IMG/VR virus record: IMGVR_UViG_2832702071_000001
Location: 32,001 to 96,000 of that record
From: a virus
Lineage: Duplodnaviria; Caudoviricetes
Length of the DNA: 64,000 nt
Direction: 5' to 3' (one strand)
Shown: piece by piece, positions 1,241 through 40,900 of the stretch
Layout: each line of letters begins with the position of its first letter
How positions within the stretch are numbered: position 1 is the first letter of the stretch
Notes under the pieces: generated by a model
The model's input: only the letters and a program-made list of their open reading frames with translations
Told to the model about the DNA's origin: nothing
Databases searched by the model: none
Program-made: the position numbers and the translations under genes

Positions 1241-1255
1241 GATAAAAAGAATATT

Positions 1256-1456
1256 TTATTTTGTGTTATTTTGAGAATACTTATAAATTTCCTTCTTATA
1301 ATCCTCAATAATTTCTTCCCAATATTTAATATGCCATAGATGCAGGTTTAACTTAGTTGTTTTCTTGGTATACTTTGCCAACATCTTATAATAATTTAGA
1401 TTGTTTTCCATATTATCTAAAACTCTTCGCTGTAAATCACTCATCTTTCCTCTCAT
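1256..1456 (-). CDS. hypothetical protein (cassette-like)
   Basis: Stop codon lies inside palindromic site 1242-1259. Confidence 0.6.
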   Translation of the reverse strand: MRGKMSDLQRRVLDNMENNLNYYKMLAKYTKKTTKLNLHLWHIKYWEEIIEDYKKEIYKYSQNNTK

Positions 1457-1505
1457 TTCTCACCAAACCTTATTAAATAATTTTTAATATAGGATACACC
1501 TTATA

Positions 1506-2286: not shown

Positions 2287-2321
2287 TTATTTTCCTCCTT
2301 TAATTAATTAAAATTCTTGTT

Positions 2322-5300
2322 TTATTTATCTACCACATCTTCATAGAATGCTATTTTTTGAATCAAGTGATTTCTATTTATATTATTAAAGTGATTAGCC
2401 GATAGCTCGATACCTTCAACCTCGTTAACTAGTTGCACTAGAGCAACTTGTAAGTATTCGATAGGACAATTAGGATTCTCCCAATAATTAACTCCCTCTT
2501 TAATCCATTCCATTTATTACCGTCCTTCCATTAAAATCTTGTTATTATCTTATATTGCTTAGCTGTGTTCTTTCTAATTGTTCTTGAAGTTGTTTACGTT
2601 CTTTGACAAACTCATCCTCAATTTCCTTTATTATTCTTATTTCACGACTTTGATCATGGTTGTCTAATCTCATTGATGCCGAGGTTAGTGCACTAATTTT
2701 ATTGTCTAATTCATTAATTTTGTCAAACGCTTGCATGACATTCACTTATAAAATCTCTCCTTCCGTTTAAATGTTACTTTTATAACAGCTCATCTTCGTA
2801 TTGGATTGAACCATTTTTATCGATATAGATACCTTTTTGCTTAACTAGATTTACGAATTTATCTTTAAAGATTATACCTGAATTAACTTCATCAAAAATT
2901 ATTTTTTGTGGACGGTTTCTCTCAATTAATTCAGCCAACACTTCAATTTGATCATCTAATGAACCTCGAACCGTTTTTTGCCCTAAATCTTTTCCATTTG
3001 CAATATCTAAACAACGAACCCTACTTTCCTCTCTTCCCCAATCAAAATAAAATACCTTCATTTAAATCTCCTCCTGATTTTTTATTTCCTTTTAAAATGC
3101 CATCATTATTTAATTACAACCCTCTATTTCTTAACGGTGTCTGTAGAAAGGTGTCTACAAGATATAACGATTTTTTAATTTGTTCACCTGTAAATAATGG
3201 GGCATTAATTGATTTAATACTAATTGTCCCATGATAATCTTCTTTTTTAGTGTAGGCATTAAACCACAATAACGGGTTAGCAAATGATGGATTTCCAATA
3301 GATACATTTTTGTCATCAGCATCCCAAACTGTTCCCAATCCTAATTTACCAAGCTCATCATATAATTTGTTTATGTCCATTTTATTTCCTCCTTTATTTA
3401 TATCAAATAAAATGTCACTTTTATTCATTTAATACTCTCTTCAGGTAGCCATACCTCTTTTCGTGTAATATTAACTTTTTTCTTGATTTCTTTATGATGC
3501 CATTCTCCACACCAATTGCATCTTCTTGTATTATTTACGTGTGTAAATCTATTTTTTGCACCCAACATCCAACCATTATGACTCCTATCAAAAATACATC
3601 TGCCGTCTCGCTCATAAGTTTCAAAAAACCAATCAGTTATATCTGTCAATTCCCAATTTGGCAATGCAAACCTATCAGATCTATTTCTGGTTAATATAGA
3701 ATCTACACTATGAAATGATCTTCCGTTTTTTAAACCTAATGGCAAGATAATAAGTTGTCTTGGATTTAAACTTTTATTTTTATCAAATTCTAAATACTTG
3801 CTATCGAACCATGAGTTGTGTACAAAATGTACCTCTAATTGATTTTTAACATACTTTCCTTCATCTCTATTTGAAATTATTTTGTGTAAAAATCTATATA
3901 AGTTCCAGCTATATTTATCTGACTCTCCTTTTGTTTTTGGTTTTATCCTTTTTATATCTATCATTTTTTACCTCCATTCTATTATAACGTCAATTTTATC
4001 TAGTCTTTTTTAAACATTTTTAAAATGTAATCATTGGCTTTATACAACTTTACATCTTCCTTTTTGGATACTTCACGCTTCAATGAATATAAATCATAAT
4101 AAGCAAGGAAGCTGTCTGATTGACCATCTAGACCCAATAATAATGTGTCTGTGCATACTCCATAATTCTTTTCAGTCGTGTCAAGATAAGCAACATTGTC
4201 AATTACGACAATATCACCGTATTCAATTTCTAAATCTTTAGCGTTATCAGTTATATGCAACTCCATTTAAATTCCTCCTTTCCGATGAAAGAAACATTTT
4301 ATTCTGTTAATCAACATCTGGTTGAAGCATACTGTTAAGTAATTGCTTAGACTCTTCTGCTAACTTATAATTTTTATTTGCTATATTAAATAAACGATTC
4401 GAATATTTTCCTATTTCTTGATTCAGTTTTATATTATTTAATTGTTTTCGTTCTACCTCATCTTCTAGTTGTCTAACGTAGTCAAATAAATTCAATAATG
4501 CATTTCTTTCCATATGTGCGCCCTCAGTTGTTTCAATATCTGTCATTAAGTCATGAATACCACTTGTGTCCCAATTATCCACTCAAATCATCTCTCCTCT
4601 ATTAAAATATAAGTTTTATCCTACAATTCTTTCAATGACCGCAATTATTACAACCACCCATAGCGAGAAACTACACTTATTTGCATCCATAATTCCTTGA
4701 TCTATATCACCTTTGAAGTCATCTATCCAAGTTTTAAAGTAGTAAATAACTGCTACCACTAAAAAAAGACCAAAATAATGTATTCAATATACTAGGATTA
4801 CCCGATTTTCTCATCTAGGTATGTAAATAATTCTTGCAATTCTTCTAATATCTCCGCTTTGTCTAAATCACTGTACGCATACACAATATCTGTAATTTGT
4901 TCTTGGTCGAGTGCATGATATTTATTTAATAATAATTGTAATTTTGTCATTTTTACCACCCTTTATATTATAATGTTATTTGTTAATACAAACTTTCTTC
5001 TTTATTTTCAGATCAATTTATATCATATCTTTTTCCTACTCTTGTATGATCTTATTAGACTAATGACCCATCAACTAACAAGGCTGTGTTCTCACATTCA
5101 AAAAACTCTTTCATAAATTCATTAAATGTAATATCCCTACCGTATTTGGAATTTGCCAGTTTCCAAAAAGCATATTCTCTTGTTACCAATTCTGGTTCTC
5201 CTTCAGATAAAACTTCTTCTGGGGTTTCTCCGCCTACTGTCTCAGAATAAACTTTTGCAGCATCATATACACAATCTCTCGTTAAATCTGTGCTAACTGT

Positions 5301-5911
5301 GATTAAACCATAATATTCTTGTTTACTAAATTCATAATATAATCTTACTTTCTTATTTATCATTTTTTTATTCCATCCTTTTTATATTATTTTATAAATT
5401 AAAACGAAGATTTTATTAATTACATTTCATATTCGATTTCTAAGTTAAACTCTTTTTGGCAATTGGGACACTTACAGTCATAAACTTCAACACACCAACC
5501 GTCTTCCTCGTATTCTCGTTTATGGTCATACACTCTATAAAAGTTTCTTTCGCTACAATGGGGGCATTTTTCAGACGTTGTTGTGTTTCCAGATGTAAAG
5601 CCTGTTGGATTGTCGTTATTGACAGCATAGATTGTTCTAACCTCCCCACAAAATTCTCCTTCAAATGGTACTACGAAAGTCATCTTATCACTTCCTTTAT
5701 AAGCTAAAATTTCCGGTTTATTTGATTATTTAAAACTTTTATTAATCTTTTTATGTGTTCTTCTGAAAATCAAACCTACAAACACGAACCAAATAATATA
5801 AATAGATACTGATATGATTGTCGGCAGCAACACTAACCACCAGCTCCAACTAATAATTCCAATAAGTTTTAATACAACAAATATAATAGTTAATGTTTCT
5901 AATACTCCCAT
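2322..5911 (-). CDS. Run of short hypothetical genes (2322-2513, 2545-2745, 2780-3061, 3114-~3380, 3425-3964, 4000-4266, 4307-4582, 5055-5363, 5420-5683, 5726-5911), mostly separated by palindromic sites
   Basis: ORFs have RBSs; 5420-5683 has two CxxC pairs; 5726-5911 is a two-TM membrane protein. Confidence 0.7.
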
Positions 5912-5948
5912 TTTTCATTCTCCTTTTTTATCAGTTAAAATAAATGTT

Positions 5949-6305
5949 TTATTTAGTGTGAGTCCCTTCAACACCACGCTGTTCTCTACTCATTGTTCGC
6001 TTTCTTAACCATAATAATGCTTCCTCTAATTTTGTTATAGCCATTGAATTTTCTTTACACTTAAAATCAGACTGATTAAAATGCTCTAACCTTGAGATAA
6101 CCATAACAATCAGGTCTTCGTTCATTACACCATTAACGCCATATTCCTTAATAGCTCCTTCTTGAAAGTGAATTGTTTGTAATATCTCGTCATTGGCAGG
6201 CTGAACAACCTCAAAATAGTGTGGTGCATTAAATTGAAAATTTTCTTCATGATATACTTTTGTATATTTATTGATTAATAAATCGTGTTTTAATTCCTCC
6301 ATCAT
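5949..6305 (-). CDS. tad1: Tad1-like anti-Thoeris/anti-CBASS cyclic-nucleotide sponge
   Basis: FQEG..KE.GVNGV..EDL...RL..F......[14 protein letters not shown]...R..RGVEGT closely follows the recalled Tad1 family pattern. Confidence 0.8.
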
Positions 6306-6372
6306 CTTCTCCTTAATGTTTATCTTAAGTTATATATTTATATTAAATTATAATTATTAAAAAGTCAACAAA

Positions 6373-6819
6373 TTACTCACCAATTAATAATCTATTTGGA
6401 TGGTATTTTTTAATCTTTTTATTTAAGAAGTCAGTATTTATAAAACCAGCGAACTTAACCATATCCTCATATGATGTAACCATAAACTCATCCCATTCGC
6501 CTGTTTTCTTCCAGTGATCGAATAGTAGTTGATGCTCTTTACTTTGATCTTCTATTAACGAAAATGAATTATCTAATTTAAACCCACTAGGAACATATTT
6601 AAACGTTTTAACAAGATCGACCAAACAGTCTTCGCATAAGTCAAAGCTCCATTGCTCCATATCAAAATTGCTATGATAACCAAATGATGTCGAAAACTCA
6701 TGAAACAAATCTAAATTATGATCTTTTTTTTCATTTTTGTATGCTTTCCCACACTTATTGCAGCTAATCATAGTCAACTCATCTTTATCAACCTTAACCT
6801 TTTTAAACTTTTTCACCAT
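6373..6819 (-). CDS. hypothetical Zn-finger protein
   Basis: CNKC and CEDC pairs. Confidence 0.6.
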   Translation of the reverse strand: MVKKFKKVKVDKDELTMISCNKCGKAYKNEKKDHNLDLFHEFSTSFGYHSNFDMEQWSFDLCEDCLVDLVKTFKYVPSGFKLDNSFSLIEDQSKEHQLLFDHWKKTGEWDEFMVTSYEDMVKFAGFINTDFLNKKIKKYHPNRLLIGE

Positions 6820-6987
6820 GTATTCCCCCTAGTGCGCTTTATAAGTTTTCATTTAAATAAACTAGTAGTTTTTCTAACTCATCAACTTTCTCTTTATCAG
6901 TTAAAACTGTGTCCATTTCTATAAGTTGTTTGTTTAGATTAAAACCTTCCGTGTGATAAAATTTATTCATTAATACTTCTAATTTAG

Positions 6988-7209
6988 TCATTCCAATTCC
7001 TCCTCTTGAATTTCATACATTATTTTCGCACTTATAATCTCATCTATATCTGTCTTTGAATTAATAAAATCCTGTGTAGATATATATTTACTATCAAACC
7101 TTAATCCCTCATATGTTTTCAAATACATCAATATTAGATGCTTATCTGTTTTTAGACTATCACCATATTTTTCAAATAGTGATTTAACATTTTCAATTGT
7201 CTTTTGCAT
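6988..7209 (-). CDS. hypothetical protein
   Basis: 73-aa ORF overlapping the upstream gene. Confidence 0.55.
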   Translation of the reverse strand: MQKTIENVKSLFEKYGDSLKTDKHLILMYLKTYEGLRFDSKYISTQDFINSKTDIDEIISAKIMYEIQEEELE

Positions 7210-7501
7210 ATTCTTCTAAACTCTTAATAGCAAACTCAAGATATTTTTTAGCTTTTTTTAAGTCTGTCAATCCTTTATCTTGATGTTTTAGTGGCGCTCT
7301 TGATAGATATTTTATTGCATTACCTACACACATACCCAAATACCCATTATCATAATTTTTTGTAACCTCTTCGATCATCTCAATAGTTTCAAACTTACCA
7401 CTAGTATAGTGGTCAGGTGAATTAACCTCTTCTTTTTTATTAATAACGTTATCAACCGCTATTGATTGAAAATTCATATCTGTTTTATCTATTTTAAACA
7501 C
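7193..7501 (-). CDS. DUF3310 family phage protein
   Basis: VNSPDHY...E.IE....GNAIKYLSRA..K.....DLKKA..YL signature. Confidence 0.85.
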   Translation of the reverse strand: MFKIDKTDMNFQSIAVDNVINKKEEVNSPDHYTSGKFETIEMIEEVTKNYDNGYLGMCVGNAIKYLSRAPLKHQDKGLTDLKKAKKYLEFAIKSLEEYAKDN

Positions 7502-7507
7502 ACCTTT

Positions 7508-8149
7508 CTACTGAATAATTCTCAACTCTACTGTTTGGACACCAAAATTATATGCTTCATTTTTACTAGAAACCAATATATCTATATCATTCCCGTTTAT
7601 AGCCCCGCCAATGTCCATAGCCCTAGCCTTAAATCTTACGTCTTTATATCTAATTTCAACTAAGCTTCCCAATTTGATAAAGTTTGGGTCTACAGCAATA
7701 ACTCTATACCCATTTGGTGAATATATCGTGTTTCTTACATCCCAACCTTTATAATTCGTGTATCCAGTGCATCCTTTACAATTAGCCACGTAATTAGTAG
7801 CATTCATTGTTATCCAGCTATTACCTTCTTGTTCTTCTCTTATCTTTTCTTTCTTGATCTCCGCTTCTTTCTCTCTCTTTTCTTTCGCTGCTATAATTTC
7901 TTTTTCATTCGCTTTATAATAAACAGAAGGTTGCAACCTCACTGGAATCAATGGTTTTATATTTACATCATAATCATCCGTCTTCTTTCCATCTTCTAAA
8001 AGTCTATCAGCCATCTTAGAAAAAGAAGGGGAAAGGTATTTATCCTCTCCCCCATAAATTAAAATGCCAATAAAACTAGAAATGATTATGAGTGTTAAGA
8101 TAGAATAAAAGACGTTTTTTATTTTATTTTTATTTTCTTTTTTACTCAT
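7508..8149 (-). CDS. membrane-anchored 3D-domain (cell-wall) protein, YorM-like
   Basis: N-terminal TM helix; VIAVDP..IKLGS....A.DIGGAI.GN.IDIL 3D motif. Confidence 0.85.
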   Translation of the reverse strand: MSKKENKNKIKNVFYSILTLIIISSFIGILIYGGEDKYLSPSFSKMADRLLEDGKKTDDYDVNIKPLIPVRLQPSVYYKANEKEIIAAKEKREKEAEIKKEKIREEQEGNSWITMNATNYVANCKGCTGYTNYKGWDVRNTIYSPNGYRVIAVDPNFIKLGSLVEIRYKDVRFKARAMDIGGAINGNDIDILVSSKNEAYNFGVQTVELRIIQ

Positions 8150-8161
8150 AAGACCTCCATT

Positions 8162-9298
8162 TTATTTAATTGATTTTGCAAATTCTAACGCTTTGGCTAA
8201 ATTATTTTCATCGACTGATTCTTTATATCCCATAGCGCTACCAAATAATTTATTAAATTCCTTAACTAACTCTTTTTGTTTCTTTATTTTTTTCAATCGG
8301 ATAATCTCGTTATCAATTTGCTCAACCAGCTCACCTGAAGATAATTTACTCTCTTCTTGTTCAGCAAATTCTTTTGTATTATCTTCACGTTTTTTAGCCT
8401 GATCTTTTTTGATATCCTCAACACTTTGTTTTGTCTTCTTAAGTTGTCCTTTTACTGCCTCTTCAAATACACGTAGGAAATTTTCGGCGCTATATGTTTC
8501 TTTGTCTGGCAGATTAGTAAATCGTCCTCCTGCAATCTCAATAAAGTTGCTAGGTCGGAAATACATATTAATTTCTGTTTCGTGGAAGTTGGATGCAACC
8601 TCTTTGTTTTTCTTGGTTTTCAAGTTTTCATCTAACTCGTTTCCATCTTTGTCAGTTACAACAACATCACCATACAGACAGCAAATCAAATCTGCTTGTG
8701 ATTTAAATATTTTTTGACCTGTCGTGTTCATCATTAATTCAACAGAGTTGTATTTTAATCCGTCAATTGTTGTTGTCTCTTTAACTTTAGTCCATGCTAA
8801 CCAAAAGAAACCGTAACCAGCATTTTTAAGTTTATCAATCTGTGTCCAAATTTCATCTTTCAGTGCAATCCATACATTTTCAGTATTAATATTTTCATTA
8901 TGCTCTTGAATTGATTCATATTGAACACCATATTTTTTATTCCATTTTTTGATTAGCCATTCGGATGCAGAATCAATCAGTTTATCTACGGTATCTACAC
9001 CGATAACTTTGGTAATACGACCATCTTTTGCCTCCTGAACTAAATCAGGAACAACTTCTGAGCGAAAGAATTCCCAACCCTTATTGTGCATATCAACAAC
9101 AGACTCTAACTCCCATGTGTTATAACCTTCTTCAAAAGCAAAAAGAGTGGCTGCATCTGGATCGTCAGGAAAAAATAACTCCATTACCTCTTTCCATAGT
9201 CGTGTTTTACCACTCTTGTAATCACCAGCTACCAATACGTTGTAATCTTGTAAATCTACTTTAGGAATGTTTTTCTTAACTGAACTTCTAAATCCCAT
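8162..9298 (-). CDS. AAA ATPase, YorG/Sak4-like recombination protein
   Basis: Walker A GDYKSGKT, Walker B IGVDTVD; follows the yorF-like gene. Confidence 0.75.
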   Translation of the reverse strand: MGFRSSVKKNIPKVDLQDYNVLVAGDYKSGKTRLWKEVMELFFPDDPDAATLFAFEEGYNTWELESVVDMHNKGWEFFRSEVVPDLVQEAKDGRITKVIGVDTVDKLIDSASEWLIKKWNKKYGVQYESIQEHNENINTENVWIALKDEIWTQIDKLKNAGYGFFWLAWTKVKETTTIDGLKYNSVELMMNTTGQKIFKSQADLICCLYGDVVVTDKDGNELDENLKTKKNKEVASNFHETEINMYFRPSNFIEIAGGRFTNLPDKETYSAENFLRVFEEAVKGQLKKTKQSVEDIKKDQAKKREDNTKEFAEQEESKLSSGELVEQIDNEIIRLKKIKKQKELVKEFNKLFGSAMGYKESVDENNLAKALEFAKSIK

Positions 9299-9334
9299 TG
9301 AATCTCTCCTTTTATATTAAATTATAATTATATA

Positions 9335-10519
9335 TTACATGCCTTTAAATGGGTCATCTTCATCAGCAAAAGGATCTTCGTTTTTATTTTCCTCAAATGG
9401 ATTACCCGATTTATTATCATCATTGTTTTCTTTATTGTCTTCTTTATCTTTTTTATCGTCTTCTTTGAAAGGATTATTTTCACTATTGTTTTTAGGTTTT
9501 TCTGTGACCTCTTCTTCTGTTAATAGGTCTTTCATATATGTTCCATTAACAATAGAATGAACTTTAACACCTTTGTCAGTACCAGTGATTGTTCTGTTAG
9601 TTCTAGAGACTGTATTTTCCTCTCCTACGGATGCAAATGGATCATCTTCAACATCTGTTTCTTCTTCCACCTCAGAAAAAATTGCCCGATTGTTGTCTCG
9701 ACCTTGTACCTCTACGAAATCAAATTTATTAAGTTTGGTAAACGCATCTGCTAAAGAAATGTTGTCACCTTCAGGCTCAACATACGGAACATCTAGTTCC
9801 ACTTCATAAGGGGTGCTTTTTTCCTTACCATAGTCAAGAAAATATGCATTAATTTTTGTCTCTCTTCCCTCTTCTTCTTGATATGTAGAATTAATACCAA
9901 TTTGCATAGAAACAAAATTTACCTCTTTGAATTCTTCAGACTCAAAATCTGTAACATATTTGTCTACGATAGTTGCTTTGCCAGCTTTAATTTCTTGCCC
10001 GTTTTCAATCGGTTCTGCGTCATTTACAATTCGCCGCTTAAAGTTGATTTTCCCTTTTTCTGAATCAATAAGTGAGCCAAATTCATATTTACCTTTCACT
10101 TCCATCCACTTACCATCTTTAAGTATACTTCCGATTCGCTCTGCTTTATCCCAATCAGTTTCAATTAAGTGGTAAGTATCATTAGGGTATTTGTCTTTGT
10201 TCGTTCGATCTTTCCAGTCAATAGCGTATGATTTCCCTTCACTTTGACTATATAGGTATGCTTTATCTTGTGGAAATCCAATTAATTGAATCTCTAAATC
10301 ATTATGATCAGCAGTTTCAATAACAAATAACAATTTTCTCATTGTATTTCCGTTAGACGTTTCACGTTCTTCTAAGTATGGTTGATTGACACGTATATTA
10401 TTTTCAAAACGTGTTGCAGGCTTAATTTTTCCTACAAAATGAAAGAAACTTTTAAATTCCTTTCCATTATGTTTTTTGTTTAATTTGATAATCTGTTTCT
10501 TTTTAGCCAAACTTATCAT
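9335..10519 (-). CDS. YorF-like putative ssDNA-binding protein
   Basis: Beta-rich core, acidic C-terminal tail ending EDDPFKGM; upstream of the AAA ATPase. Confidence 0.6.
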   Translation of the reverse strand: MISLAKKKQIIKLNKKHNGKEFKSFFHFVGKIKPATRFENNIRVNQPYLEERETSNGNTMRKLLFVIETADHNDLEIQLIGFPQDKAYLYSQSEGKSYAIDWKDRTNKDKYPNDTYHLIETDWDKAERIGSILKDGKWMEVKGKYEFGSLIDSEKGKINFKRRIVNDAEPIENGQEIKAGKATIVDKYVTDFESEEFKEVNFVSMQIGINSTYQEEEGRETKINAYFLDYGKEKSTPYEVELDVPYVEPEGDNISLADAFTKLNKFDFVEVQGRDNNRAIFSEVEEETDVEDDPFASVGEENTVSRTNRTITGTDKGVKVHSIVNGTYMKDLLTEEEVTEKPKNNSENNPFKEDDKKDKEDNKENNDDNKSGNPFEENKNEDPFADEDDPFKGM

Positions 10520-10592
10520 TCTCCTTTTATATTAAATTATAATTATATAGTTTAAAAATATACTACTAGATCATAAATCACCACCTTAAATG

Positions 10593-12281
10593 TTAAATAT
10601 CTTTTATTTTCTCTTTAAACACATTTATATCACTAGACAATATACTTGTCATTTCAACCATTATTTGCTTTAAATTATTAATCTTACTAGATAAATCTTG
10701 GACAACTTTGAACATATCTTCTTTATTAATAATTTCCACATGGTCTAATGGTAATGTCCTCTTGTTGCCTAAGTCATCAATGAATGTAACGGCATCACTA
10801 TAATTTTCAATAACAACATATATTGGTTGGCTTGTGCTAGGTGACACCTTCTTTGGTTTAATCATCTTTATATCCTTATGATTATCTAATGCATTCTTTA
10901 TAAGCAATGATTGACTAGGATTAATAGTATAATAGTTATTATTTTTGTCAACCATCTCTAGAATTAATGGGTTACCAATGTAGTCAACTTTTACACTTAC
11001 TACTCTCATTTGAACAGAAACTAAGCCCAGTTTAGTGTCTGTGACTAGATACTCCTCATTAACTTTAAAATCTCTATTCATTATAACTCACCTTCCTTTA
11101 ATTAGTCAACACATTTTTATATTAAATTATAATTAATTTCAACCTTCTAAACAAAATTCATCGAAGTCTGAAGTATGTAACGTATATTGTTTACTGTTAT
11201 CTCCAAATTCAAAATTAATGATATCAACATTGAATTTAATCATATCAAGCGCCATTTTATTAACAAACTCTTGAATCCCCTCGTGATCGTTTTCTAATCC
11301 AAACATATTTACATGCGCCATTATATTTTCCTCCTATAAAGTCTCTTTTTATAATTATATACATTCAACTCAATATTAGCTCCCGTCCCAAAGATTGACG
11401 GTCAATCGATTTTTTATAAATGAGCTTAACTTTTTACCATAAAATTTAACAATATGAATTCCTCATTTAAATTTAAAAATCCCTTTTTCTTTCTTTTTTT
11501 GATTTTTATTGGAATCACGAACATTTTGATTTTCATTTAAGTCGTGAACGGTTTCTCGCAATTCACGTATTTCTTTCCTTTGCTCATAATTTTCCCATTC
11601 TAGATCATGAAGTTTTTCTCTCAACTTCGCCACACTTGCATCCTTAATGTCTTTGATTAACTTTTCTTTTTGCCGATCCTCATAATCACCAACAATATAA
11701 TCAATATAAATTTCTTCTACATTATCGTCGATGTTAAAGCTTTTCTTTTCGACAGAATACTCTTTTCCTTCATATTTAATAATATTATAATCTTTCCATT
11801 TTTCATTAACGTAGTTAAGCTTGTTTAAATAAATATACTCTACAAACTCTTCTTTTTTTTCTATATATTTTTCAGGATCAGAAATCTTGTTTAAAAGCTC
11901 AGTTTCAGGGTTATACGAAATCATTCCAGCCCATCCTCCCATAGTAAGGTGAGATCGTTGATCCATCTCTTTATAAGTATATTTAACCTTTTTTCCATAA
12001 ATTTTTAACATTATAAAAATCCTCCTTGTTTTTATATATTAACTTCATTCTACCTCATCACTAGTAAACCTTCTCCTATAACTCCACTTCACCCCAGAGC
12101 GATCTTTTACCCTTTTCTTTACGAGCCTTTTCCTGTGCACCTCTGATGTTAAAGACACTATATGATTTGTGTTATAAGCAGTATCTTCTACAATAATTGT
12201 TTTATCTAGTAATTCCAACTCTTTAAATGATTCCAATCCCCTCATCAACGAATCTAATTTGTAAAATGTAATATATGACAC
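10593..12281 (-). CDS. hypothetical proteins (10593-11081, 11139-11321, 11463-12011, 12045-12281)
   Basis: ORFs with RBS-like sequences. Confidence 0.6.
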
Positions 12282-12420
12282 TTTTTCTCCTAAAACTGTT
12301 TGGAAAGTTGAGTGTATTTCGTATACTTCTCTGTCTTTTTTTTATCATCTTTCACACGACTCTCTTTACTTTTAAATAGATTTAATATCTCAAACAACTC
12401 CTACCAAAACAAGGATTTTA

Positions 12421-28588: not shown

Positions 28589-28593
28589 AGATG

Positions 28594-29129: not shown

Positions 29130-29164
29130 AACAAAAGCGCTACTATTAAAGTAACGCTTTTGTT
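29130..29164 (-). terminator. intrinsic terminator after aimP
   Basis: AACAAAAGCG...CGCTTTTGTT inverted repeat. Confidence 0.8.
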
Positions 29165-29170
29165 GTGTTT

Positions 29171-29359: not shown

Positions 29360-29392
29360 CTTCTCACCCCCTTTCAAAGTTAAGATATGTGT

Positions 29393-30442: not shown

Positions 30443-30591
30443 GCCTAAGTCACCCTCGCTGATATTGGTATGAACCAATAATACCATTTTTGTTTCATAT
30501 TTGCAACGATTTTTTCCCAATATTTTCATTGTTTTTACTACTTATTTCATATATACTTTCCATATACATATAATAGAGGTGGTAAACGGAT

Positions 30592-30891
30592 ATGAATTTT
30601 ATTATCGCAGAAAACTTAAAATTAATACGCTCCACAAATGGCTACTCACTAAGTCTTGTTAGCGAAGGAACGGGTATCACAAAATCAACCTTATCTAGAA
30701 TAGAAAATGGTAAATCACCTATAACGGTTGACCACCTAGATAGTTTAACCTCATTTTACAACATTGATATTAAATTGCTATTCATTAAAATTAAAAATGA
30801 AAACAAACGTGAATACATAAATTTATTAGAAAAAATTAAACGAACACCGATTGAAAATGTAAGCATCGAAATGTTGAGAAAATTTGTTTAA
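30592..30891 (+). CDS. XRE-family HTH regulator divergent from aimR
   Basis: LKLIRS..GYSLS.VSE.TGITKSTLSRIENG; GAGGTG RBS. Confidence 0.85.
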   Translation: MNFIIAENLKLIRSTNGYSLSLVSEGTGITKSTLSRIENGKSPITVDHLDSLTSFYNIDIKLLFIKIKNENKREYINLLEKIKRTPIENVSIEMLRKFV

Positions 30892-30926
30892 CTTTAAATA
30901 TATTATAATACATTTTCTCAACATTT
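30869..30926. repeat. 15-bp inverted repeat AAATGTTGAGAAAAT with a 28-bp spacer between convergent genes
   Basis: Arms at 30869-30883 and 30912-30926. Confidence 0.7.
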
Positions 30927-30967
30927 GTACGACTAATCGTTCGACACTTATCGACTAAATGCGATTT

Positions 30968-31870
30968 TTATTCATTCTTGCCAACTAACAATTCTACGTG
31001 GTAAGCGTCATCGTCGTCAATTAATTGCGCTATCGCCCGTAGTTTATTGGCAAGTACCGAACCTGTATCTTCATTTTTTAACTCAAATAAAAAACTAAAG
31101 TCGTCATTTAATTCATGACTAAATTTATCGATATTATCCTGTTTGATTTCAGTGTTTTCTGGACTAGATATTTTATTTTCCTCGCCACTATCACCCTGAC
31201 TGTAACTACTACCAACACCTAGCATATCGTAGTCTGACTCTTCCTTATTTTCTTGATTATATATAAAAGCTTCATCTTCAATAGTTTCTTGTTCGTTTCT
31301 AGCAGCCTTTCTCCATTGGGATCTACTTGATTTCAGACTAGATGAAGATTTATATCCCCAATAATCCGCCAATTCTTCATAAGTAAACCCATCATCATTT
31401 AAATACTTATCAAGTAAATTATTTTTTTCTTTTGGACTTAGCTTATTAAATTCTTTTCTATTAATAATTTTATCAGCCACAACAGATGCACCCTTTTCTT
31501 CATTTATTAATTTATTTTTAATATTATAAAAAGATGTTTCACTAATACCCATAGATTCTGCGATATGTCTATTTGTATTATTTTTCATCCATCTTAATAA
31601 TAGTTCTTTTTGTCTTCCTCGATTTAAATTTTTAAAATCCCTGTAATTCATTATATCAATATATAAGTTAGACACTTTAGTCTTAGAATTTTTTTTATTA
31701 GGCTGACCTTTAAAATTCGACAATCCCCTCCAATAGCCACTTGATTTTGCTTTTTCACCTCTACTCACCTTATTGTGAGAACCCCTACCGATGCGCTTTT
31801 GAGTGCTTATCTCTTTGTTAAACATCCGAGTAATTTCTTCTGAACTTTCTAATTTAACCATAATTAGCAC
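30968..31870 (-). CDS. hypothetical protein with two HTH-like repeats
   Basis: IMNYRDFKNL...IAESMGIS and IINRKEFNKL...LADYWG repeats. Confidence 0.55.
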   Translation of the reverse strand: MLIMVKLESSEEITRMFNKEISTQKRIGRGSHNKVSRGEKAKSSGYWRGLSNFKGQPNKKNSKTKVSNLYIDIMNYRDFKNLNRGRQKELLLRWMKNNTNRHIAESMGISETSFYNIKNKLINEEKGASVVADKIINRKEFNKLSPKEKNNLLDKYLNDDGFTYEELADYWGYKSSSSLKSSRSQWRKAARNEQETIEDEAFIYNQENKEESDYDMLGVGSSYSQGDSGEENKISSPENTEIKQDNIDKFSHELNDDFSFLFELKNEDTGSVLANKLRAIAQLIDDDDAYHVELLVGKNE

Positions 31871-31909
31871 CTCCCATCTTAACCCTATTATACCTTAATT
31901 TTTAACTTT

Positions 31910-33751
31910 TTAAAACTGTTTAATTAGTTTTCCGGTAAAAAATTCTTCAGTCTTCCCATCCATGATTAAACTTGAATCATTTAATTTATCTTCTAACATT
32001 TCTAACAACATTTGATCGATCTCTGCCTCTTCTACATATAAATAATGTATGTTTACAGGTCTTGTTTGACTGATTCTGTGAATTCGTTTTTCCATCTGGT
32101 TAACCATCGTTACTGGAGACCAATGGAAGTCAATTACAACCATGTGTGCTGCTTTAGTTAAAGTTATACCCTCACCTGCTGCATCAATATTACCAACAAA
32201 AACTTTCTTCTCACCATTTTGAAACATATCTACTGCATTTTGTCTGTCTTTAGCTTCGACATCACCTGTAATTTTTACTACATTATTGTTAAATTTACTT
32301 TCTATATAGTCTGCAACATCTGTATAATTAGTAAACACAACCACTGATTCATCCTGCTCCAACAAATCTTTAATTAAATTAACAGACTCTTTTGCTTTCG
32401 CCAAAGCTAGCTCCATTCTTGCTATATTTAATCTAACAAGATGTTGACCATTTTTATTAAATTTTATTCTATTGTTAAGATAGTCTTTAATCGCCTTATT
32501 ATATTTTGACATATTTATTTTAACAGGTATAAAGTTTCTAATTCGATCTGGCAGATCTACATAGTCTTCGGTTTTTAATCGAACCATATAATTAGGATAC
32601 AATCTTTCATTCAATTTCTCTTTATTGCTTGAACCTAGATAAGTTACCCCAAAACCACTACTCCTATCGGGCTGGCAATATGTGTTAGCAAACCTAAACC
32701 AGTTATCTGATGATGGGTGATCTATGAGTCTTAAGAGGTTGAATATATCCTTAGTATAATTGATAAATGGAGTTGCCGTAATAGGGAACACATACTCTAT
32801 ATTACTTGCTATTTGCAGACTAAGCTTTGCTCGTTTACTAGATGGATTACCTCTACCATTAATGCCTCTAAGCTTGTGCGCTTCATCAAAAACAACGATA
32901 TTAAAATCTTCATTTAATATATTCTCCATAAACCGATCAATAATATCATAGTTGATAATTACATATTGGCTCATTTTCCATTCATCTTTACTATTTAGAA
33001 CATTGACTTCAGCATGTTTATTAATTTTGTAGATCTCTTTCTTCCAATTCTCTTTAATAGTAGCTGGACAAATAATTAAAGTCGGTTTATTAATATACTC
33101 ACAAGCCATTACTGTTATAGCTGTTTTCCCCAATCCAGCCTCTAAAGCATCAATTACTTTCTTACCACCCACTAATTTGTTTACAGTATCTATTTGAAAA
33201 TTATATGGATCAATTGTACTACTAGGAAAATCTTCTGGTGATATTTTACCATCGCTGTTATAGTGATTTGAAGTAAATTTTTCTAATTCGCTAATATCCA
33301 CATAATTAAGTTTTTTTAGTTTTTCATACAACCAATCTATATCAGACTTTTGAACTCTCCATGATTTGTTTTTGGAATTATACTGTCTGTTCTCTAGATT
33401 TTTAATCTGATTTAATATATTCTTATCATAATCAAAGTTGATAGTTATTGATTTTGAATTTTCTTTAACATTCAATTTAACTGTTTTAATTACTTCTCTC
33501 TTATCTTCTGCATTATATGTTTGTTGGTCATCTATGTTATCAACAACACCGTTCAATCTTTTAACAATGTCATTGTTATTTTCTTTAATTTGTTCTAAAA
33601 AGTGTAAAATATACGTTTTGTCAAAAACCCAAACATTATTATTTTCATCATAACTAGAATCTGGTATTTTTTTAATTTCATTGTATAATTCATAATCATA
33701 CTCGTTTCCCATACTTATGTTTTTTTTATCTACACTAACAAACATCCCCAA
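31910..33751 (-). CDS. SNF2-family helicase with N-terminal HARP-like domains
   Basis: AGLGKT, DEAH, TATP, GEGITLT and KRIHRISQ motifs; two N-terminal Y....K/N.W repeats. Confidence 0.88.
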   Translation of the reverse strand: MGMFVSVDKKNISMGNEYDYELYNEIKKIPDSSYDENNNVWVFDKTYILHFLEQIKENNNDIVKRLNGVVDNIDDQQTYNAEDKREVIKTVKLNVKENSKSITINFDYDKNILNQIKNLENRQYNSKNKSWRVQKSDIDWLYEKLKKLNYVDISELEKFTSNHYNSDGKISPEDFPSSTIDPYNFQIDTVNKLVGGKKVIDALEAGLGKTAITVMACEYINKPTLIICPATIKENWKKEIYKINKHAEVNVLNSKDEWKMSQYVIINYDIIDRFMENILNEDFNIVVFDEAHKLRGINGRGNPSSKRAKLSLQIASNIEYVFPITATPFINYTKDIFNLLRLIDHPSSDNWFRFANTYCQPDRSSGFGVTYLGSSNKEKLNERLYPNYMVRLKTEDYVDLPDRIRNFIPVKINMSKYNKAIKDYLNNRIKFNKNGQHLVRLNIARMELALAKAKESVNLIKDLLEQDESVVVFTNYTDVADYIESKFNNNVVKITGDVEAKDRQNAVDMFQNGEKKVFVGNIDAAGEGITLTKAAHMVVIDFHWSPVTMVNQMEKRIHRISQTRPVNIHYLYVEEAEIDQMLLEMLEDKLNDSSLIMDGKTEEFFTGKLIKQF

Positions 33752-33967
33752 TCACCTCTGGTCGTCTGGATTTTGATACTCTATTATTAAACTCACATCT
33801 TTAATATTTAATGCCTTCATTATCTTTGTTAAATTATCTAGGTTTAATTTACCGGTTTGATTATGAGCATAACTATAGACAGTTGCGTATCTCAATTCAG
33901 CTTTCTTTGATAAGAACCTTATGCTTATTTGATGGTCTTTAAGATATTCCAATAATTTTAACCTCAT
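33752..33967 (-). CDS. small Cro/C1-type HTH regulator
   Basis: ISIRFLSKKAELRYATV....N...L.LDNL.KI..AL. Confidence 0.85.
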   Translation of the reverse strand: MRLKLLEYLKDHQISIRFLSKKAELRYATVYSYAHNQTGKLNLDNLTKIMKALNIKDVSLIIEYQNPDDQR

Positions 33968-34050
33968 ATAACTCTACCTTTCAACGATAAATTTGTGTTT
34001 CTGTTATATTTATTTCCTACCACCCCTAAAGGTAAGAGGTGGTGGTTCTT

Positions 34051-34692
34051 TTACTTAGATAAGGTTACTTCTGCTATATTTTCTCCCCAATAATCCAATT
34101 GGACGAAAATATTGCCCTCTGTGATATCTAAGTCTTTATTCGCTTCAAAAACAACACTACCACGTAATTGAGAACCTGATTTTATTTCACTCGAAAATAT
34201 ATTTCCTTCTGTTCCAATAGCTGAAACAACGCTGCTGTCAGTAATAGGACTATGTTCTACTCCATTACCATCTAAAAACTTTATTGAACCAGGATCAATT
34301 GATATTGGGTCATTACCTTTATTTTCAATTGTTACACTAGATGCAATAAACTTACTGTTTTGTTCTGTGGGTTTGACAATAGTTTCTCCTGTATCAACCC
34401 CCTCTAAAGAACCTATAGTATTTAATGTAAAAGAAACGCTGTTTATCGTTGCTTGTTCACCTATACCAACTTCTAACTCTTTAATCTCTTCTTCTTTAAC
34501 ATCCTCTGATCCACTTTCACTATTCATATTTTTTGTATTCACATCATCATCGACAACTTCACTGGATTTATTTTTTACTTCTGAGGCTTGACCACCACTT
34601 TCTCCTGTTCCACATCCTCCTAATAAAAAAAGTATGCTTGTAATGGCGATTGCAAATAAATATAATTTCTTTGTTTCTCTCATAAATATCAT
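34051..34692 (-). CDS. DUF4352-like lipoprotein
   Basis: Lipobox LGGC; VTIENKG.DPI and G...GSVVFE Ig-like motifs. Confidence 0.75.
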   Translation of the reverse strand: MIFMRETKKLYLFAIAITSILFLLGGCGTGESGGQASEVKNKSSEVVDDDVNTKNMNSESGSEDVKEEEIKELEVGIGEQATINSVSFTLNTIGSLEGVDTGETIVKPTEQNSKFIASSVTIENKGNDPISIDPGSIKFLDGNGVEHSPITDSSVVSAIGTEGNIFSSEIKSGSQLRGSVVFEANKDLDITEGNIFVQLDYWGENIAEVTLSK

Positions 34693-34945
34693 CTCCTTTT
34701 TACTATTATCTTCCTCTAATAATAAGTATATGATATTTATGAGTGTTATCGCAATTTTTTTAGCGATATTTTGTACATTCTGTTATACAAATATATTAAT
34801 ATGAGTTTTCTGTTTTATCTTAATAATCCAGTGATAATATCTATATAGTGATAATATCTATATTCTGTTATATCAATTAGTACACTACTATATATAAAAC
34901 AAATAACGATAATTACACGATAAGTTAAAATTCACATTTTATTAG

Positions 34946-37900
34946 CTAATGAGCTTCTATTTTTATTATTAATCTATTATTTAGGTTGCAGCGTTCTTCA
35001 TATGCTTCTGTAAACATTAATTCGACTATCGCATTTGTATCTAATACATAAATAGGCAGTTCAGTTTCAACGTCATCTACATAATACTCGCCTTGACCAA
35101 CGCTTCTTATGTTACAAGTATAAGTGCGTCCTTCCTTCTTGACGTTAAACTTACTATCTTTATTAATCATATTAATGCCTCCTTATCCAATAAATAATCT
35201 ATTTTATTAATACTTGTTCCCAAAATGATAGACATAGTCATCAAAAGAAATTACTCTATATTCTTTATAAAATGCTTACCGTGTACATTTTTGATTCCAC
35301 CACTCATATTAATGCTGATATCGTTAATAGTTAAATTTTCATTATTTAACAAATCTTTTATAACGCTACTCTTTAATACATCGTTTTCCCATTTATTATA
35401 TAAAGTTGTATTCATTCTAATCCCTCCATATAATCCTTTAAAATTCCGTTTTTATCGGAAGGCTAGCGATATTTGTACTAGCCTGTTATACTGTTTCTTG
35501 TTCCTTATACAAAGGTGACAATCCGTATCTTTTAATAGCGTTCTGAATCAATGTCTCTAACTTTTCTTTATTCATACTAACCGCCTTACTAGCTACATCT
35601 TTTGCTTCTCTTTGCGTTGCTTTATTGGTTGCTATATTTAATCCAGTTTGTTCCTCTACAATGCTATATGTGTTATCTTCATTGTATTTTAAATAGGCTT
35701 TAATACCCTCAATGTTTAACTTTTTACCATGAGATTCAACAAAATTATGTTGACCATTATCATTCTTTAACCAGTAGAATTTTTGAACATTATTAGATGA
35801 AGTATTATTACTTCCTTTATACTCTCTATCCTCAAAGACCGCCTTAACTTTGGCTGTTATAGTAATGTTTTTGTCATCCATTGATACATTATCAAATACT
35901 TTAAACAGTATGTCTTTCTCTAACTTCATAGTAGGGTATCCTTCAATAGTATATTCTCTCTTATTTTGATCTGTATCATTTTCATTTTCGACATACATTT
36001 GTAGGTAATGTATGCAATAATCTTGATTACCTAGCATAATAGTGAATTTTTCATGCATTGCATTGTAAAATGATTCCTTTTCTTCATCTACATATATACT
36101 TTTGATCTTTTCCCAGTGATTATCTAGTATGGATGTTATAGGATTGACTTCAAATTTATCTAGTATTTTCTCCCCGATTAAATGCCATTCCCTCTGCTTT
36201 CTTTCTCTTCTTTCTTTGTGTTCTTGCTCCTCTTTCTGTCTTTTCGCTTCTGTCTCTTCTCTTTCCTTTTGTGCTCTTTCTTGCTCCAGCCTTTCCTTTT
36301 GCTCTTTTTCTACCTTCTCATTATCAATAAATAATTGTGCTTTTTCTTCATTTAGTAAATCATTGTTGATTAAGTGTAATGCGTAGTTATAAGCTGTTTT
36401 CGTTACTTCAGTATAAGTATTGTCGTCATGTTGTATCTTGTAAAGTGTTTTAGGCTTTGTATAATCGTCTAAACGTCTACTGTAATATGAGTAATTTTCT
36501 TCAAAATTAGGCTTGCTACCTTCTTGTAACTTGATAAAAACATATTCTTTCATCGACATTACTTCACCATCAAACCTCCATAGTTTATCAAGTGTATTTT
36601 TAATTTTTGCTACTTGCATAGGTTTTTTATTGTTTGTAAATCCAAAGTAAGTATTTTTTAAATTCATCATGTTTCATCTCCTTTAATTTTTCCTATAAAA
36701 TAATCGTTTTAACCCTCACTATATGTATATAAACAAGTTATACAAAATTACACGATTACTCATAAATAATTTCAAACTTTTCCAACCCTGTTCGATCATA
36801 GTTAAAATGATAAATATGACTATCTATGATATTTACTATCTCTTCATACTCATATTTATCCAACGAATAAGCATGTAGAATGCCTCCATGTAGCGCAAAC
36901 AAAATTGAATCTGTCTCAAAAATTTTTAACCTTGATACATCGAACACATAGTCTGTAGAATCTAAATAAAAATAGCTATGATTATCTAAACGCTTCAACT
37001 CTATCAACAACGTGTCTTTTGTCATAAATGCCACCTCCTATTTGATATTTCTGGTGATATTTATTGGTTTCTGTTATATAAATATATGTTAATTATAAAT
37101 TATTATAAATTTAATTTCAACATATATTTATATTAAATATTAATTGTTGCAATAAAATTATTTTTGATACGATTAATTGTTTTAACCTCTTCTTCTAGCC
37201 CATCCTTATAAAAACAGGTTTCAATCATAAATTTGATCTGTTTTTCTTGTTGCTTTAATAATCTCAACAAATATAGTTTTCCTGTTTACTCATAGCTGCA
37301 CCCCTAGCAATATTTTTTTGTTTCTGTTATATAGAGTTAGTATTTGTGAAAATATATACCAACTCTATATATTTGTATTTCAAGCACCTACTCAACAATA
37401 TCAACAATAGTATATTTGTTTTCAATTCCAGTTGAAGCTGTTACTTCTTCATTTGAAAGCACATCGTTTAAAAAAGATATAATACCATCTTTTGTCATTC
37501 TCTCCTCTAATACCATTGAGACCGTGTTACTATCTGGGTCAATCGGTTCAGCGACAACAACCCTCTTGTTTCTATTTTCAAAATCAATTTTATTAAATTG
37601 GTCAATATCTGCAATTGTCATTAAATGATTGTACTGTGTTTTTTCCTCAATATTCAACTCCAATTTTTCTCCTTCTTCATCAATTAATAAGTGGTCATTG
37701 TGTGATAACCATTCCTTCATACTTTGATAAACTTCAAAATGTACTAAATCATCAACAAACACTGTTTTTCTTTCTTTTTTACTATTTCCCGTAAGTCTCA
37801 CATCTGCCAATAATTCATAAACTTCTAGCTTACTACCGTTATTCAAATTTACTTTTACCATAATTTTCACCCCTATTTTTTTAACTTTTATACTAATATT

Positions 37901-40900
37901 TTACTATAGATTTCCAGCGATTAAAAGTAGTTTTTGTTATATAAAATGATACATTTATTGGATAGATACATTTGTAACTGTTATAAGATTTCTACTTATT
38001 AACATATCCCTAGATACTAATGTAATGGCTTTTTCTTTGGCTGATTCTCTATCCGCATCCCAAATATTTATATAGCCATTATAATTAAAATCCATTCCCC
38101 TAGCGTTCCAGCTAACTATATAATTTCTTCCATCCATTTCTTACGCTCTCCTTATATAAATTATCGCACCAGTTCTTTTACTTCTGATCGCAAACCTTCA
38201 ATTATTCCATCATTCTTTAATTCATATTTATTATTGAATCTATATACATCATATAAGAATATTTGTTCACCATTCGCATTAATTCTAGCCCTTTTAAAAG
38301 GCTTTCTAATTCTTATGTTGCCTTTACTTGGTTGCATAGTTTCAAGCGTGGCGACTTTTTCATTGTCTTTTATAGTAACCGTAAACCATGCGTCAGTGAT
38401 ACAAGATCCATTTTTATATAATTCGTTATGAATGCTATCAAAGAACTCTTTATCAGTCATAATTAACATACTCCTTCTAAGCTATTTTTTAACTATTAGC
38501 TTTATTAATCGCTTTTAGTTCTTCATCTATGATTTTATGCGCATACTCTGTTGGAGCAAATTTAACTCTTTCTAATACCTTTTTGTAAAGTTCTGCCTTA
38601 TTGCTCTGTTTAATTAAATAATCATAATCTTCCTCTTGCGCTCTTAAGACTCCACTATCCTTACTTCCTAAAAAGCTTTTATTCAAAACTGCCACCCCTT
38701 ATATTATAATTCTTTTTAAAATGGTAATTTTATTCTATACTAATTAATTCAAATATATCAATAGTTTCCTCCTTTTAAATAATCCGATAATATGAAAGAA
38801 AATTCTCCTGCTTTATAGTCTCCTGCATAGTTAGCATTAGTGAAAGCATGTTCTAATTTTTTTACTGTTCCTCTTTGGTCAAACACATTTTCATTCTTCA
38901 AAATTGCGTTTACATCGTTTATAATAAACGGTAGATCACTTTCACTAGCTAATTTTACAGATACCCTTTTAATTAATTCAATCGTCATTGTAAATCCCTC
39001 CTAATTTTAAGACAAAAATTATAGATTTAACTTAATATTACAAGTAAATATCTGGTGTATTGTATCCTTTAGTGGCTTGTAAATAATCCTCTTTTGTAAC
39101 CTCTTTACATGAAACAAGATAATCTCTATCTATTAATTGAAAGTGCCCATCTATAACATTATAACCTTCTACCCATTTTTTACCTTTTAATTTTTCGTTT
39201 TGTGTTCCGTTGCATTCATTCTCATAAGCTATAAAATGTAATAGTGCTTCGTTTGATGTAGGATTGACAACTTCACTTTCTCTAAAATAACCTAAAATTT
39301 TTATATGTTCCATTTTACATTCTCCTTTTATTAATTATCCTTTAAAATTAATAATGTTTTTTTCACAATAATTCATTGCTTTTGTCACTGTTGTAAATCC
39401 ATCTTTTATCATTTTTCTATTGTCTCTGTCTAGTGTTATTGAAATACTCTCATCCTTTTCTTTTACAATTGCATAATTTAACATTCTTGTATTCTCCTTT
39501 TCGATTAAAATGTAGTATTTATTGCAACGTGTATTTATAAATCCCTATCCATACTTGTATAGTATTTTTTGAATACCCTATTAATTCTAATCCTCTGAAT
39601 AGATTCCTTTTATCTGTCTTATTGAATTTCTTTACTTTATCCTTATTGATACATGCTAAGTCAAAGTTATGTTTTTTAAATAAGCACAATAATAACTGTT
39701 TCCCTTTTGTATAATCGTTTGATGTCTTTGTCATCTCTTTTCTTACTTGATCTTGCCATTTTGCCATAATTAACAACCTCCATAAGATAAAATTATAGTT
39801 TTAATTGATTAATTGTTATGTTTAACTTAACTTGATTATATACTATGTTGAGTATATAATCAATACTTTTTTATATTAAATTATAATTAATTTTATTAAA
39901 TAGTTAACTCCTACCATTAAAATGAAAAATGAAATGCCATAAAAATAGAAAGCATCACTCCAGCAAATATGATCTTCACCAAAAAAATATTGATTAATCA
40001 ATCTAATAGCTTTCATACTCTACACTCCTTATTACATGAATTGCATATAATCGTAAAATTTTTCATCGACTAAGCTCCTTATTAAATATATTTCTCCAAT
40101 GCTTCACTTGGATTATCGTACTCATTTTCATCTAAGAATAGCCAGTCAGTACTTCTTTTTGAATCACGTTTTGTCGCTCTCCATTTGCCATTAATGTTTA
40201 TTGCTCTATAATCTCCTACAAACCAATTATTTTTAGTTAACATTATCTCATTACCTCCATTCTAATAATTGCATTAGCTTTATTATCAAGTCTAACTGCT
40301 GCACGATATTCAAAGTTAGATAAATAAGTTCTAACATCCTCTGACCAGTAACCGTTATTTTTAATAATTGATACTAATTCATTAACATGTTTCTTTAATA
40401 CTTTTTGTTTCATACTCCACACTCCTTTTCCAGTAAAATTTGAATTTTATGTGATTCTTCATACAATAACTTTTAACTTGATTATATTGTACTACATATA
40501 GTATATAAAATCAATACTTTTTTTATATTAAATTATAATTAATTTACACTTTAATTTCTTTATTAATAATGATACAACCTTGTTTAATAAGTTTATTAAC
40601 TATATCATCAATTTTTATGATTGTTTCCTGCAAGTTGCCTGTCGTGATATCTTTTACGTATCCTTTAGACCATGCCATCACACTATTATCATACCCGTAT
40701 AAATCAATTATTTCTTTGCTTTCTTTATCTTGCACTTCTATATAATATTTTAATTTCATATCGCATATACTCCTTTATAATTTTTCAATACTAACAATAA
40801 GTAATACATATTTCTTCATAGTCATTCAATGCCTCCATATACGTAGAACATTGGCTATATTCTACGTGGTGACCTTCACAATGTATATAATAAGCAACCT

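Follow-up and report, generated by a model that had tools for sequence, protein, structure and literature searches.

The difH site of Helicobacter and Campylobacter, on which the recombinase XerH acts, reads TGAAAA-N6-TTTTCA and is reported to have a unique central region of 6 bp between two matched domains, alteration of its four As abolishing XerH recombination (PMC3325230). A similar element, TAAAA-N6-TTTTA, is described here from an SPbeta-like phage. The stretch analysed (the window, 64,000 bp) comprises bases 32001-96000 of the 115,935-bp provirus record IMGVR_UViG_2832702071_000001 (G000), and positions are window coordinates unless stated otherwise. Both elements have A-tract inverted arms and a 6-bp centre, the phage form WTAAAA-N6-TTTTAW differing from difH by one base per arm, and among proteins of solved structure XerH is the closest in sequence to the YopP family of phage recombinases. 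In contrast, difH is a single chromosomal site that serves dimer resolution and depends on FtsK, while the phages carry 33-45 putative sites at gene junctions, each with its own centre.

Four other systems are comparable in part. The pdif/dif modules of Acinetobacter plasmids are described as multiple Xer-type sites in accessory regions, flanking discrete adaptive gene modules that turn up again in different contexts (PMC6449649); they lie on plasmids and are attributed to the host XerC/XerD, whereas a phage has dozens of sites and no enrichment of them is seen in the host chromosome. The PeSL elements of T4-type phages are reported as conserved intergenic elements of hyperplastic regions at the boundaries of insertions, deletions and replacements (PMC2839356), but they consist of a promoter and a stem-loop terminator and recombine between copies, while only 3 of the 33 window sites stand by a promoter-like box, none has a G+C stem and their centres differ. 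The stoperators of cluster A mycobacteriophages are likewise dozens of short protein-binding sites in the intergenic gaps of a temperate phage (PMC3029335). Unlike the phage sites, which are dyads with a free centre, stoperators are asymmetric 13-bp sequences that run in the direction of transcription and serve the immunity repressor as binding sites. Integrons share with the window co-oriented promoterless genes, recombination-type sites between them and stop codons near or inside the site. The attC site is a folded structure of 57-141 nt; the phage core has 16 bp and no complementarity beyond its 5-bp arms, the inserts do not have a site at each end, the order is fixed and the candidate enzyme is Xer-like. 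From the evidence given below we tentatively favour reading the phage elements as in-register crossover joints of the Xer/dif type between related phages, probably worked by an XerH-like recombinase of the phage.

Exact copies of TAAAA-N6-TTTTA numbered 33 in the window (Table 1), as against 1.79 expected from dinucleotide shuffles, the largest shuffle giving 5. All other spacers, N0-N5 and N7-N14, yielded 0-5 copies each, as did the reversed arrangement TTTTA-Nk-TAAAA. Although gene interiors make up 81.5% of the window, 32 of the 33 copies lay outside them (binomial P = 9e-23), the exception at 8106 falling in the first codons of an open reading frame (ORF) whose start is uncertain; these counts, and those of gene junctions, rest on rough gene calls. 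Copies with one mismatch were barely enriched overall (42 versus 34 expected), and 24 of the 42 were intergenic (P = 3e-8).

The window has a G+C content of ~30% and consists of small leftward genes up to ~46 kb and rightward late genes beyond. Among 99 co-directional leftward junctions an exact site was present in 28 and a one-mismatch site only in 19 more; about half of the small early gene gaps hold the 16-base palindrome. Each copy follows a stop codon and precedes, by a few bases, the ribosome-binding site of the next gene. Thirty exact sites lay within positions 1-40450; at 11 of them the arm facing the upstream gene overlapped the stop codon of that gene, and at 22 the next start codon followed 13-36 nt from the site. 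Three of the 33 sites adjoined a TTGACA promoter-like box at the position of an UP element. A YonO-like RNA polymerase, recognised by similarity, and AimR and an MrpR-like protein, recognised by Pfam, gave the phage its SPbeta-like character.

An earlier note made from the window sequence alone (the original prediction) had described most of this accurately, namely a motif specific for N6, 30 perfect copies in 1-40450, about 20 near-matches, stop codons within the upstream arm with the next gene close behind, an SPbeta-like phage, the core-site layout of tyrosine recombinases, now matched by difH, and a recombinase at 45215-46252, which proved to be Xer-like. The recombination module at 7-11 kb, in which it saw no sites, holds one exact copy (8106), and position 2780, one of its examples of a stop codon within an arm, belongs to the one-mismatch site starting at 2767.

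For the architecture of the element, 154 sites of four genomes were analysed. W stands at both position 0 and position 17, and the two were complementary in 77 sites versus 79 expected, i.e. at chance level, and the three pairs of centre positions were complementary in 38, 43 and 42 sites versus 50, 43 and 43 expected, so that no excess pairing was seen. The outer positions were symmetric, position -4 being Y in 124/154 and position +21 being R in 127/154 sites; the inner six bases of each arm (W-TAAAA) were fixed and the outer bases looser. One-mismatch variants in the window were spread equally over both arms (4 TGAAA versus 5 TTTCA). A symmetric outer preference without pairing is the mark expected of a symmetric protein reading double-stranded DNA. 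Each element is thus a double-stranded DNA dyad and not a folded RNA or DNA hairpin, the hairpin being rejected since neither flanks nor centre covaried. The base preferences suggest arms of ~11 bp and hence an 11-6-11 site. In comparisons of SPbeta relatives with otherwise unrelated flanks, 97% of 32 pairs agreed at the sixth base past the site and 97% of 30 pairs at the base immediately ahead of it, which suggests outer-arm positions common to the family, TTTTA-w-n-n-A-R-A.

If recombination takes place only at matching centres, a genome should avoid equal and symmetric centres. The centres of 281 sites from eight motif-rich genomes were therefore compared, with the expected number of identical pairs taken from column shuffles. 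No two centres within one genome were identical, either directly or inverted (0 pairs versus 5.32 expected, P = 0.004), and none was self-complementary (0/281 versus 6.24 expected, P = 0.0013), so that the central region is asymmetric and polar. The uniqueness of the centres implies that centre identity matters, the opposite of the Tn916-style tolerance of non-homologous coupling sequences, and that copies inside one genome should not shuffle among themselves; a recombinase needing matching centres could neither delete nor invert between them.

Breakpoints were compared in the ~50 kb early region of SPbeta, Goe13, phi3T, SPbetaL2 and SPbetaL3, a check that had been set beforehand and whose outcome agreed with the prediction that they fall at the sites. 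Homology ended within 30 bp of a site in 26-35% of cases, as against 2% of random positions. Motif junctions were more often boundaries in every gap-length class (odds ratio 5-16), and with motif-less neighbours at most three junctions away as a local null, gene-replacement boundaries were present at 55/68 motif and 78/199 motif-less junctions (odds ratio 6.6). Of the 83 boundaries located in motif junctions, 39 lay no more than ~3 nt from an edge of the site and one lay inside it (null 11% for each). Twenty-four of the 40 distinct centres were common to at least two of the five phages, with no break of order in 10/10 pairs. Where a copy was kept in both genomes at a boundary, its centre was the same in 33 cases and different in 5. 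The 100-nt flanks of the 92 same-centre pairs were unrelated on both sides in 27, on the left only in 24 and on the right only in 16, and homologous on both sides in 25. In the laboratory hybrids Hyb1-3 (phi3Ts x SPbeta) crossover intervals of 18,236, 1,405 and ~4,890 bp were all bounded by sites and do not discriminate between the readings.

The motif was enriched in several other phages. Whole-record exact counts were 45 for G000, 36 and 39 for two proviruses whose YonO is 54% and 48% identical (G001 and G002), and 34 for Bacillus phage SPbeta, the means for other spacers being 1.4-5.6 (1.8 in SPbeta). Geobacillus virus E3 (30 copies) and Tsamsa (23) were both N6-specific, PBC2 had 23 copies versus a control of 1, and two further metagenomic phages had 29 and 45. 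The motif was weak in Lactococcus phage 949 (7 versus 2.6 for other spacers); three further records with YonO held 5, 0 and 5 copies, and another dominant palindrome was not found in them. One of the proviruses resides in a Sporosarcina globispora genome; there the 140-kb prophage accounted for 36 of 99 copies, and the genome-wide count equalled its control (99 versus 96). The motif therefore belongs to the phage and not to a host regulon, and a host factor was rejected, the chromosome outside the prophage not being enriched. Sites in Tsamsa end just 2-5 nt ahead of the Shine-Dalgarno sequence, and a subset of them (8163, 34809, 48671, 66043, 76546, 91264 and 102515) is preceded by an extra conserved element of ~26 nt, AAGG...TTTTCTTGA. 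No description of the motif in phages was found in the literature searched, the sole literal match being a paper on an archaeal regulator.

The candidate enzyme (45215-46252) is orthologous to YopP of SPbeta. In the alignment of the family R167, K193, H252, R255 (K in SPbeta), H279 and Y288 are kept, so that the set R-K-HxxR-H-Y is complete. When the family profile was compared with solved structures XerH ranked first (5jjv, E = 1.9e-10), the catalytic residues aligning with the XerH motifs, and the six matches at E <= 0.001 were XerH, XerC-like, XerD and XerA proteins; an integron integrase was not among these six, no dedicated IntI model having been run. YopP is described as carrying an XerC-type integrase domain (PMC8612738), and in the portions of the literature searched no function beyond this annotation was found.

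When every ORF of G000 was profiled phylogenetically by tblastn and jackhmmer, with up to 13 other phage genomes for comparison, no family proved to be present in every motif-positive genome and absent from every negative one, so that assignment of the binder by this means failed. The best candidates were the YopP-like family, which merged with other integrases upon iteration, and the MrpR-like family, found in 5/7 other motif-positive genomes (6/8 with G000) and in 0/6 weak or negative ones. The MrpR/YopR-like protein at 27388-28485, whose orthologues are SPbeta yopR and genes in G001, E3 and Tsamsa, is probably the master repressor, and is the alternative candidate for binding the sites. A third gene with the tyrosine-recombinase fold, similar to SPbeta yomM, lies in the structural module just past the window end (96598-97605 of G000), and an exact copy of the motif overlaps its stop codon. 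A structural-module recombinase is described likewise for Tyrovirus gp50 and for 949 phages, and in Tyroviruses a putative attP is reported to follow it (PMC9703825). That attP was considered as a form of the motif and rejected, the inverted repeat downstream of the Tsamsa structural-module recombinase being different from TAAAA-N6-TTTTA.

If the sites are in-register crossover joints, a tyrosine recombinase needing matching centres would exchange strands only between the same copy on two molecules, since the six bases between the two inverted arms are never the same at two copies of a genome. The partner could be a co-infecting phage or a resident prophage, for example. Exchange at a joint would swap everything on one side and keep the gene order. 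In the long term such exchange would preserve the joints themselves, identical and in unchanged order, next to genes that are unrelated to one side or to both, which is the pattern observed in the SPbeta relatives. The recombinase would have to bind and cut the sites, and the XerH-like YopP-family protein of the phage itself is the putative enzyme.

Several results weigh against this interpretation or against its simple form, a recombination hot spot. The co-occurrence of motif and YopP family is imperfect: both YopP-like and MrpR-like genes were undetectable in the complete genome G008, which has 45 sites, and the closest YopP homologue is that of phage 949, which has few sites. No close relative of the window phage was found (top YonO identity 54% among viral contigs and 60% among genome contigs), and for this reason the boundary evidence was drawn from SPbeta relatives. 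As these five share ancestry the pooled P values are overstated, and the precision of left-edge boundaries is partly explained by the stop codons that overlap the site. No site was present within 30 bp of 94 of the 159 distinct boundaries, none of five distinct simple insertions had a site at both ends, and divergence change-points inside homologous blocks showed no excess at sites, being present at 31% of 32 sites versus 25% of 158 other junctions (P = 0.37). One more crossover of Hyb1-3 lay in a 40-bp interval without a site; the remaining ones fell in long identical blocks and are uninformative. Centres common to the window genome and distant relatives were at chance level (1 versus 1.6, 5 versus 2.2 and 1 versus 1.7 expected), so that conservation of addresses over this distance was not supported. 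G001 and SPbeta shared 5 centres versus 1.03 expected (P = 0.0025); the flanks of these had no tblastx similarity, and one of the SPbeta copies sits inside yopR.

The sites might instead be regulatory punctuation, operators for a dimeric DNA-binding protein of the phage that silences or times early and accessory genes, perhaps by blocking transcription in its path, with no recombination; they would mark mosaic boundaries only through separating independently expressed modules and being kept intact by selection. This we consider unlikely, although much of the distribution agrees with it. Nearly all sites are intergenic, 30/33 lie in the early leftward array between stops and ribosome-binding sites, the dyad with its outer W suggests a symmetric dimer reading the minor groove, three sites adjoin TTGACA boxes at the UP-element position, and the MrpR-like family follows the strongly motif-positive genomes (6/8 versus 0/6). 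Stoperators, intergenic and reported as 24 in L5 and 34 in Bxb1, are a precedent (PMC3029335). However, an operator model predicts neither the non-repetition nor the non-self-complementarity of the centres, and it leaves unexplained why a copy persists in full, with its centre, where the sequences on both sides have been replaced.

The known MrpR operator also differs from the motif. The ten prominent MrpR peaks of SPbeta in chromatin affinity precipitation sequencing (ChAP-seq) are reported at promoter regions bearing SPBRE, a 15-bp operator (PMC10516654); weaker peaks may exist. The sequence derived from these ten upstream regions is AAATACAAAWAATATGTAT, and identity of the motif with SPBRE was therefore rejected. 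Moreover, the repressors of SPbeta and phi3T are reported to differ in specificity, that of phi3T being a monomer which binds a 26-bp box (bioRxiv 10.1101/2025.11.27.690993), whereas the motif is identical across very distant phages. A second repeat of the window, TATATTAAATTATAATTAT, which reads ATAATTATAATTTAATATA before rightward genes, has ~20 copies in the early and late regions, often beside a TTGACA box or immediately before a ribosome-binding site. It is likely a promoter or operator element, and is more likely than TAAAA-N6-TTTTA to be the counterpart of SPBRE in the window.

Rather improbable is an account in which the sites are linker homology, short patches of identity where general or phage homologous recombination joins unrelated modules without a dedicated enzyme, the fixed arms serving another function such as expression. 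Boundaries at the outer edges of shared copies are what is expected of an identity patch, the laboratory hybrids arose through ordinary homologous exchange within long stretches of identity, and the PeSLs are reported to mediate modular shuffling and to yield mini-circles (PMC2839356). Yet 16-28 bp is very short for homologous recombination, and no reason is provided for the exact N6, the polar centres, the same arms across SPbeta, Tsamsa and E3, or the likeness to difH.

The original prediction had interpreted the array as integron-like, with single-gene circles excised and captured at TAAAA-N6-TTTTA and differing centres tolerated as in Tn916. The interpretation was partly supported overall: the units are co-oriented (ribosome-binding site, ORF and site), stops overlap sites, a tyrosine recombinase is encoded and replacement boundaries coincide with sites. 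Its integron mechanism is nevertheless very unlikely. The sites are dyads of 16-28 bp with no attC-like fold or covariation, the anatomy of the simple insertions contradicts capture of single-gene cassettes, and the solved relatives of the recombinase profile are Xer proteins. The avoidance of identical centres disagrees with Tn916-style tolerance and, together with the copy order fixed in 10/10 pairs, with any shuffling of copies within a genome. Least probable is an RNA element, a small A-U hairpin or a site for a protein on the polycistronic early mRNA, steering processing or translation of the next cistron, which would suit the constant place between stop codon and Shine-Dalgarno sequence in the window and in Tsamsa, but an A-U stem of 5 bp is not stable by itself, compensatory pairing is absent, the symmetric one-mismatch variants favour neither strand, and SPbeta has sites also upstream of promoters and after terminators.

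Table 1. Copies of TAAAA-N6-TTTTA, related genes and other repeats in the window
Feature	Centre	Position	Strand	Remark
Exact site	AGAATA	1243..1258		adjoins TTGACA promoter-like box
Exact site	TTCTTG	2309..2324		overlaps stop of gene 2322-2513
Exact site	TGTCAC	3408..3423		
Exact site	TATAAG	4603..4618		
Exact site	CGAAGA	5400..5415		
Exact site	TAAATG	5936..5951		overlaps stop of 5949-6305
Exact site	GACGTT	8106..8121		first codons of called ORF 7508-8149, start uncertain
Exact site	TTATGA	13184..13199		
Exact site	TCAGTA	14619..14634		overlaps stop of 14632-15168
Exact site	AATATA	15629..15644		
Exact site	CATTCC	16369..16384		
Exact site	GATCAG	16883..16898		
Exact site	TGATCT	17335..17350		adjoins TTGACA promoter-like box
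Exact site	TAGTTG	18657..18672		
Exact site	CAATCT	19348..19363		overlaps stop of 19361-19636
Exact site	TTGTCA	20185..20200		overlaps stop of 20198-20488
Exact site	GGAAAA	21006..21021		overlaps stop of 21019-21333
Exact site	GAAACG	21569..21584		overlaps stop of 21582-22037
Exact site	TCTGCA	22487..22502		overlaps stop of 22500-22673
Exact site	TTCGTA	22696..22711		overlaps stop of 22709-23026
Exact site	CCCATC	23051..23066		
Exact site	TTGATA	24963..24978		
Exact site	TGTTTA	26743..26758		
Exact site	CATATA	27313..27328		directly downstream of MrpR-like gene
Exact site	TTCACA	34926..34941		
Exact site	TTCCGT	35439..35454		
Exact site	TAATCG	36696..36711		
Exact site	GGTAAT	38717..38732		
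Exact site	TTATAG	39788..39803		
Exact site	TTTGAA	40434..40449		
Exact site	TAGCTC	49455..49470		after YonO-like gene
Exact site	GATCTT	52421..52436		30 nt ahead of rightward gene 52467
Exact site	GGCGCA	60601..60616		late region; gene call there uncertain
One-mismatch intergenic copies, leftward arm (n=23, 16 nt each)		2532..42989		some may be chance; starts 2532, 2767, 3983, 4286, 5705, 8149, 12405, 15403, 16391, 17288, 20503, 22052, 23553, 23833, 24156, 24774, 25598, 29342, 35191, 37942, 39506, 42500, 42974
Further one-mismatch intergenic copy		start 61965		
MrpR/YopR-like protein, tyrosine-recombinase fold, 365 aa		27388-28485	-	Pfam MrpR_N_CB, E = 3.8e-10
AimR		29393-30529		Pfam
YopP-like, XerH-like tyrosine recombinase, 345 aa		45215..46252	-	candidate enzyme or binder; Pfam Phage_integrase, E = 1.9e-10
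YonO-like protein, 842 aa		46780-49308		no Pfam family; assigned by similarity to SPbeta
Repeat TATATTAAATTATAATTAT		1209-1243, 6337-6371, 9295-9341, 10510-10556, 13236-13282, 17300-17334, 19222-19268, 27326-27373, 39854-39900, 40522-40556, 42575-42625, 45158-45205		
Repeat ATAATTATAATTTAATATA, rightward		46317-46577, 49474-49501, 55101-55133, 57830-57862, 59454-59486, 63446-63473		
Repeat TAGCGATATTT-N10-CTGTTATA		19274-19306, 33236-33268, 34754-34792, 34839-34877, 35464-35496, 37045-37084, 37305-37337		5-7 copies

Two other kinds of repeat were seen in the window. The sequence TAGCGATATTT-N10-CTGTTATA is confined in its listed copies to the early region. A 43-nt sequence is directly repeated just behind the stop of the YonO-like gene (49309-49351 and 49372-49414), the two copies being 88% alike and 63 nt apart.

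The clean joining of unrelated genes at gene borders in mosaic phage genomes is an old open question, and to our knowledge the linker idea of modular theory has found little support. Large temperate phages of Bacillota may possess an addressed site-specific grid, dozens of Xer-type sites each traded only with the same six-base address by an XerH-like recombinase; we offer this wider proposal as a possibility, with more reserve than the reading of the sites themselves. If it is true, accessory genes including anti-defence genes would be traded in register, without homology of the genes and without scrambling their order. Since SPbeta, with its 34 copies, and phi3T grow on laboratory Bacillus subtilis, the hypothesis is directly testable. 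Should the sites be operators instead, they would form a second genome-wide layer of control that was missed by the work on MrpR. If they are addressed crossover joints, they would constitute a programmed mechanism for the exchange of accessory genes between phages, and the Xer-like recombinases that SPbeta-like phages and Tyroviruses conserve, so far unexplained, would acquire a role.

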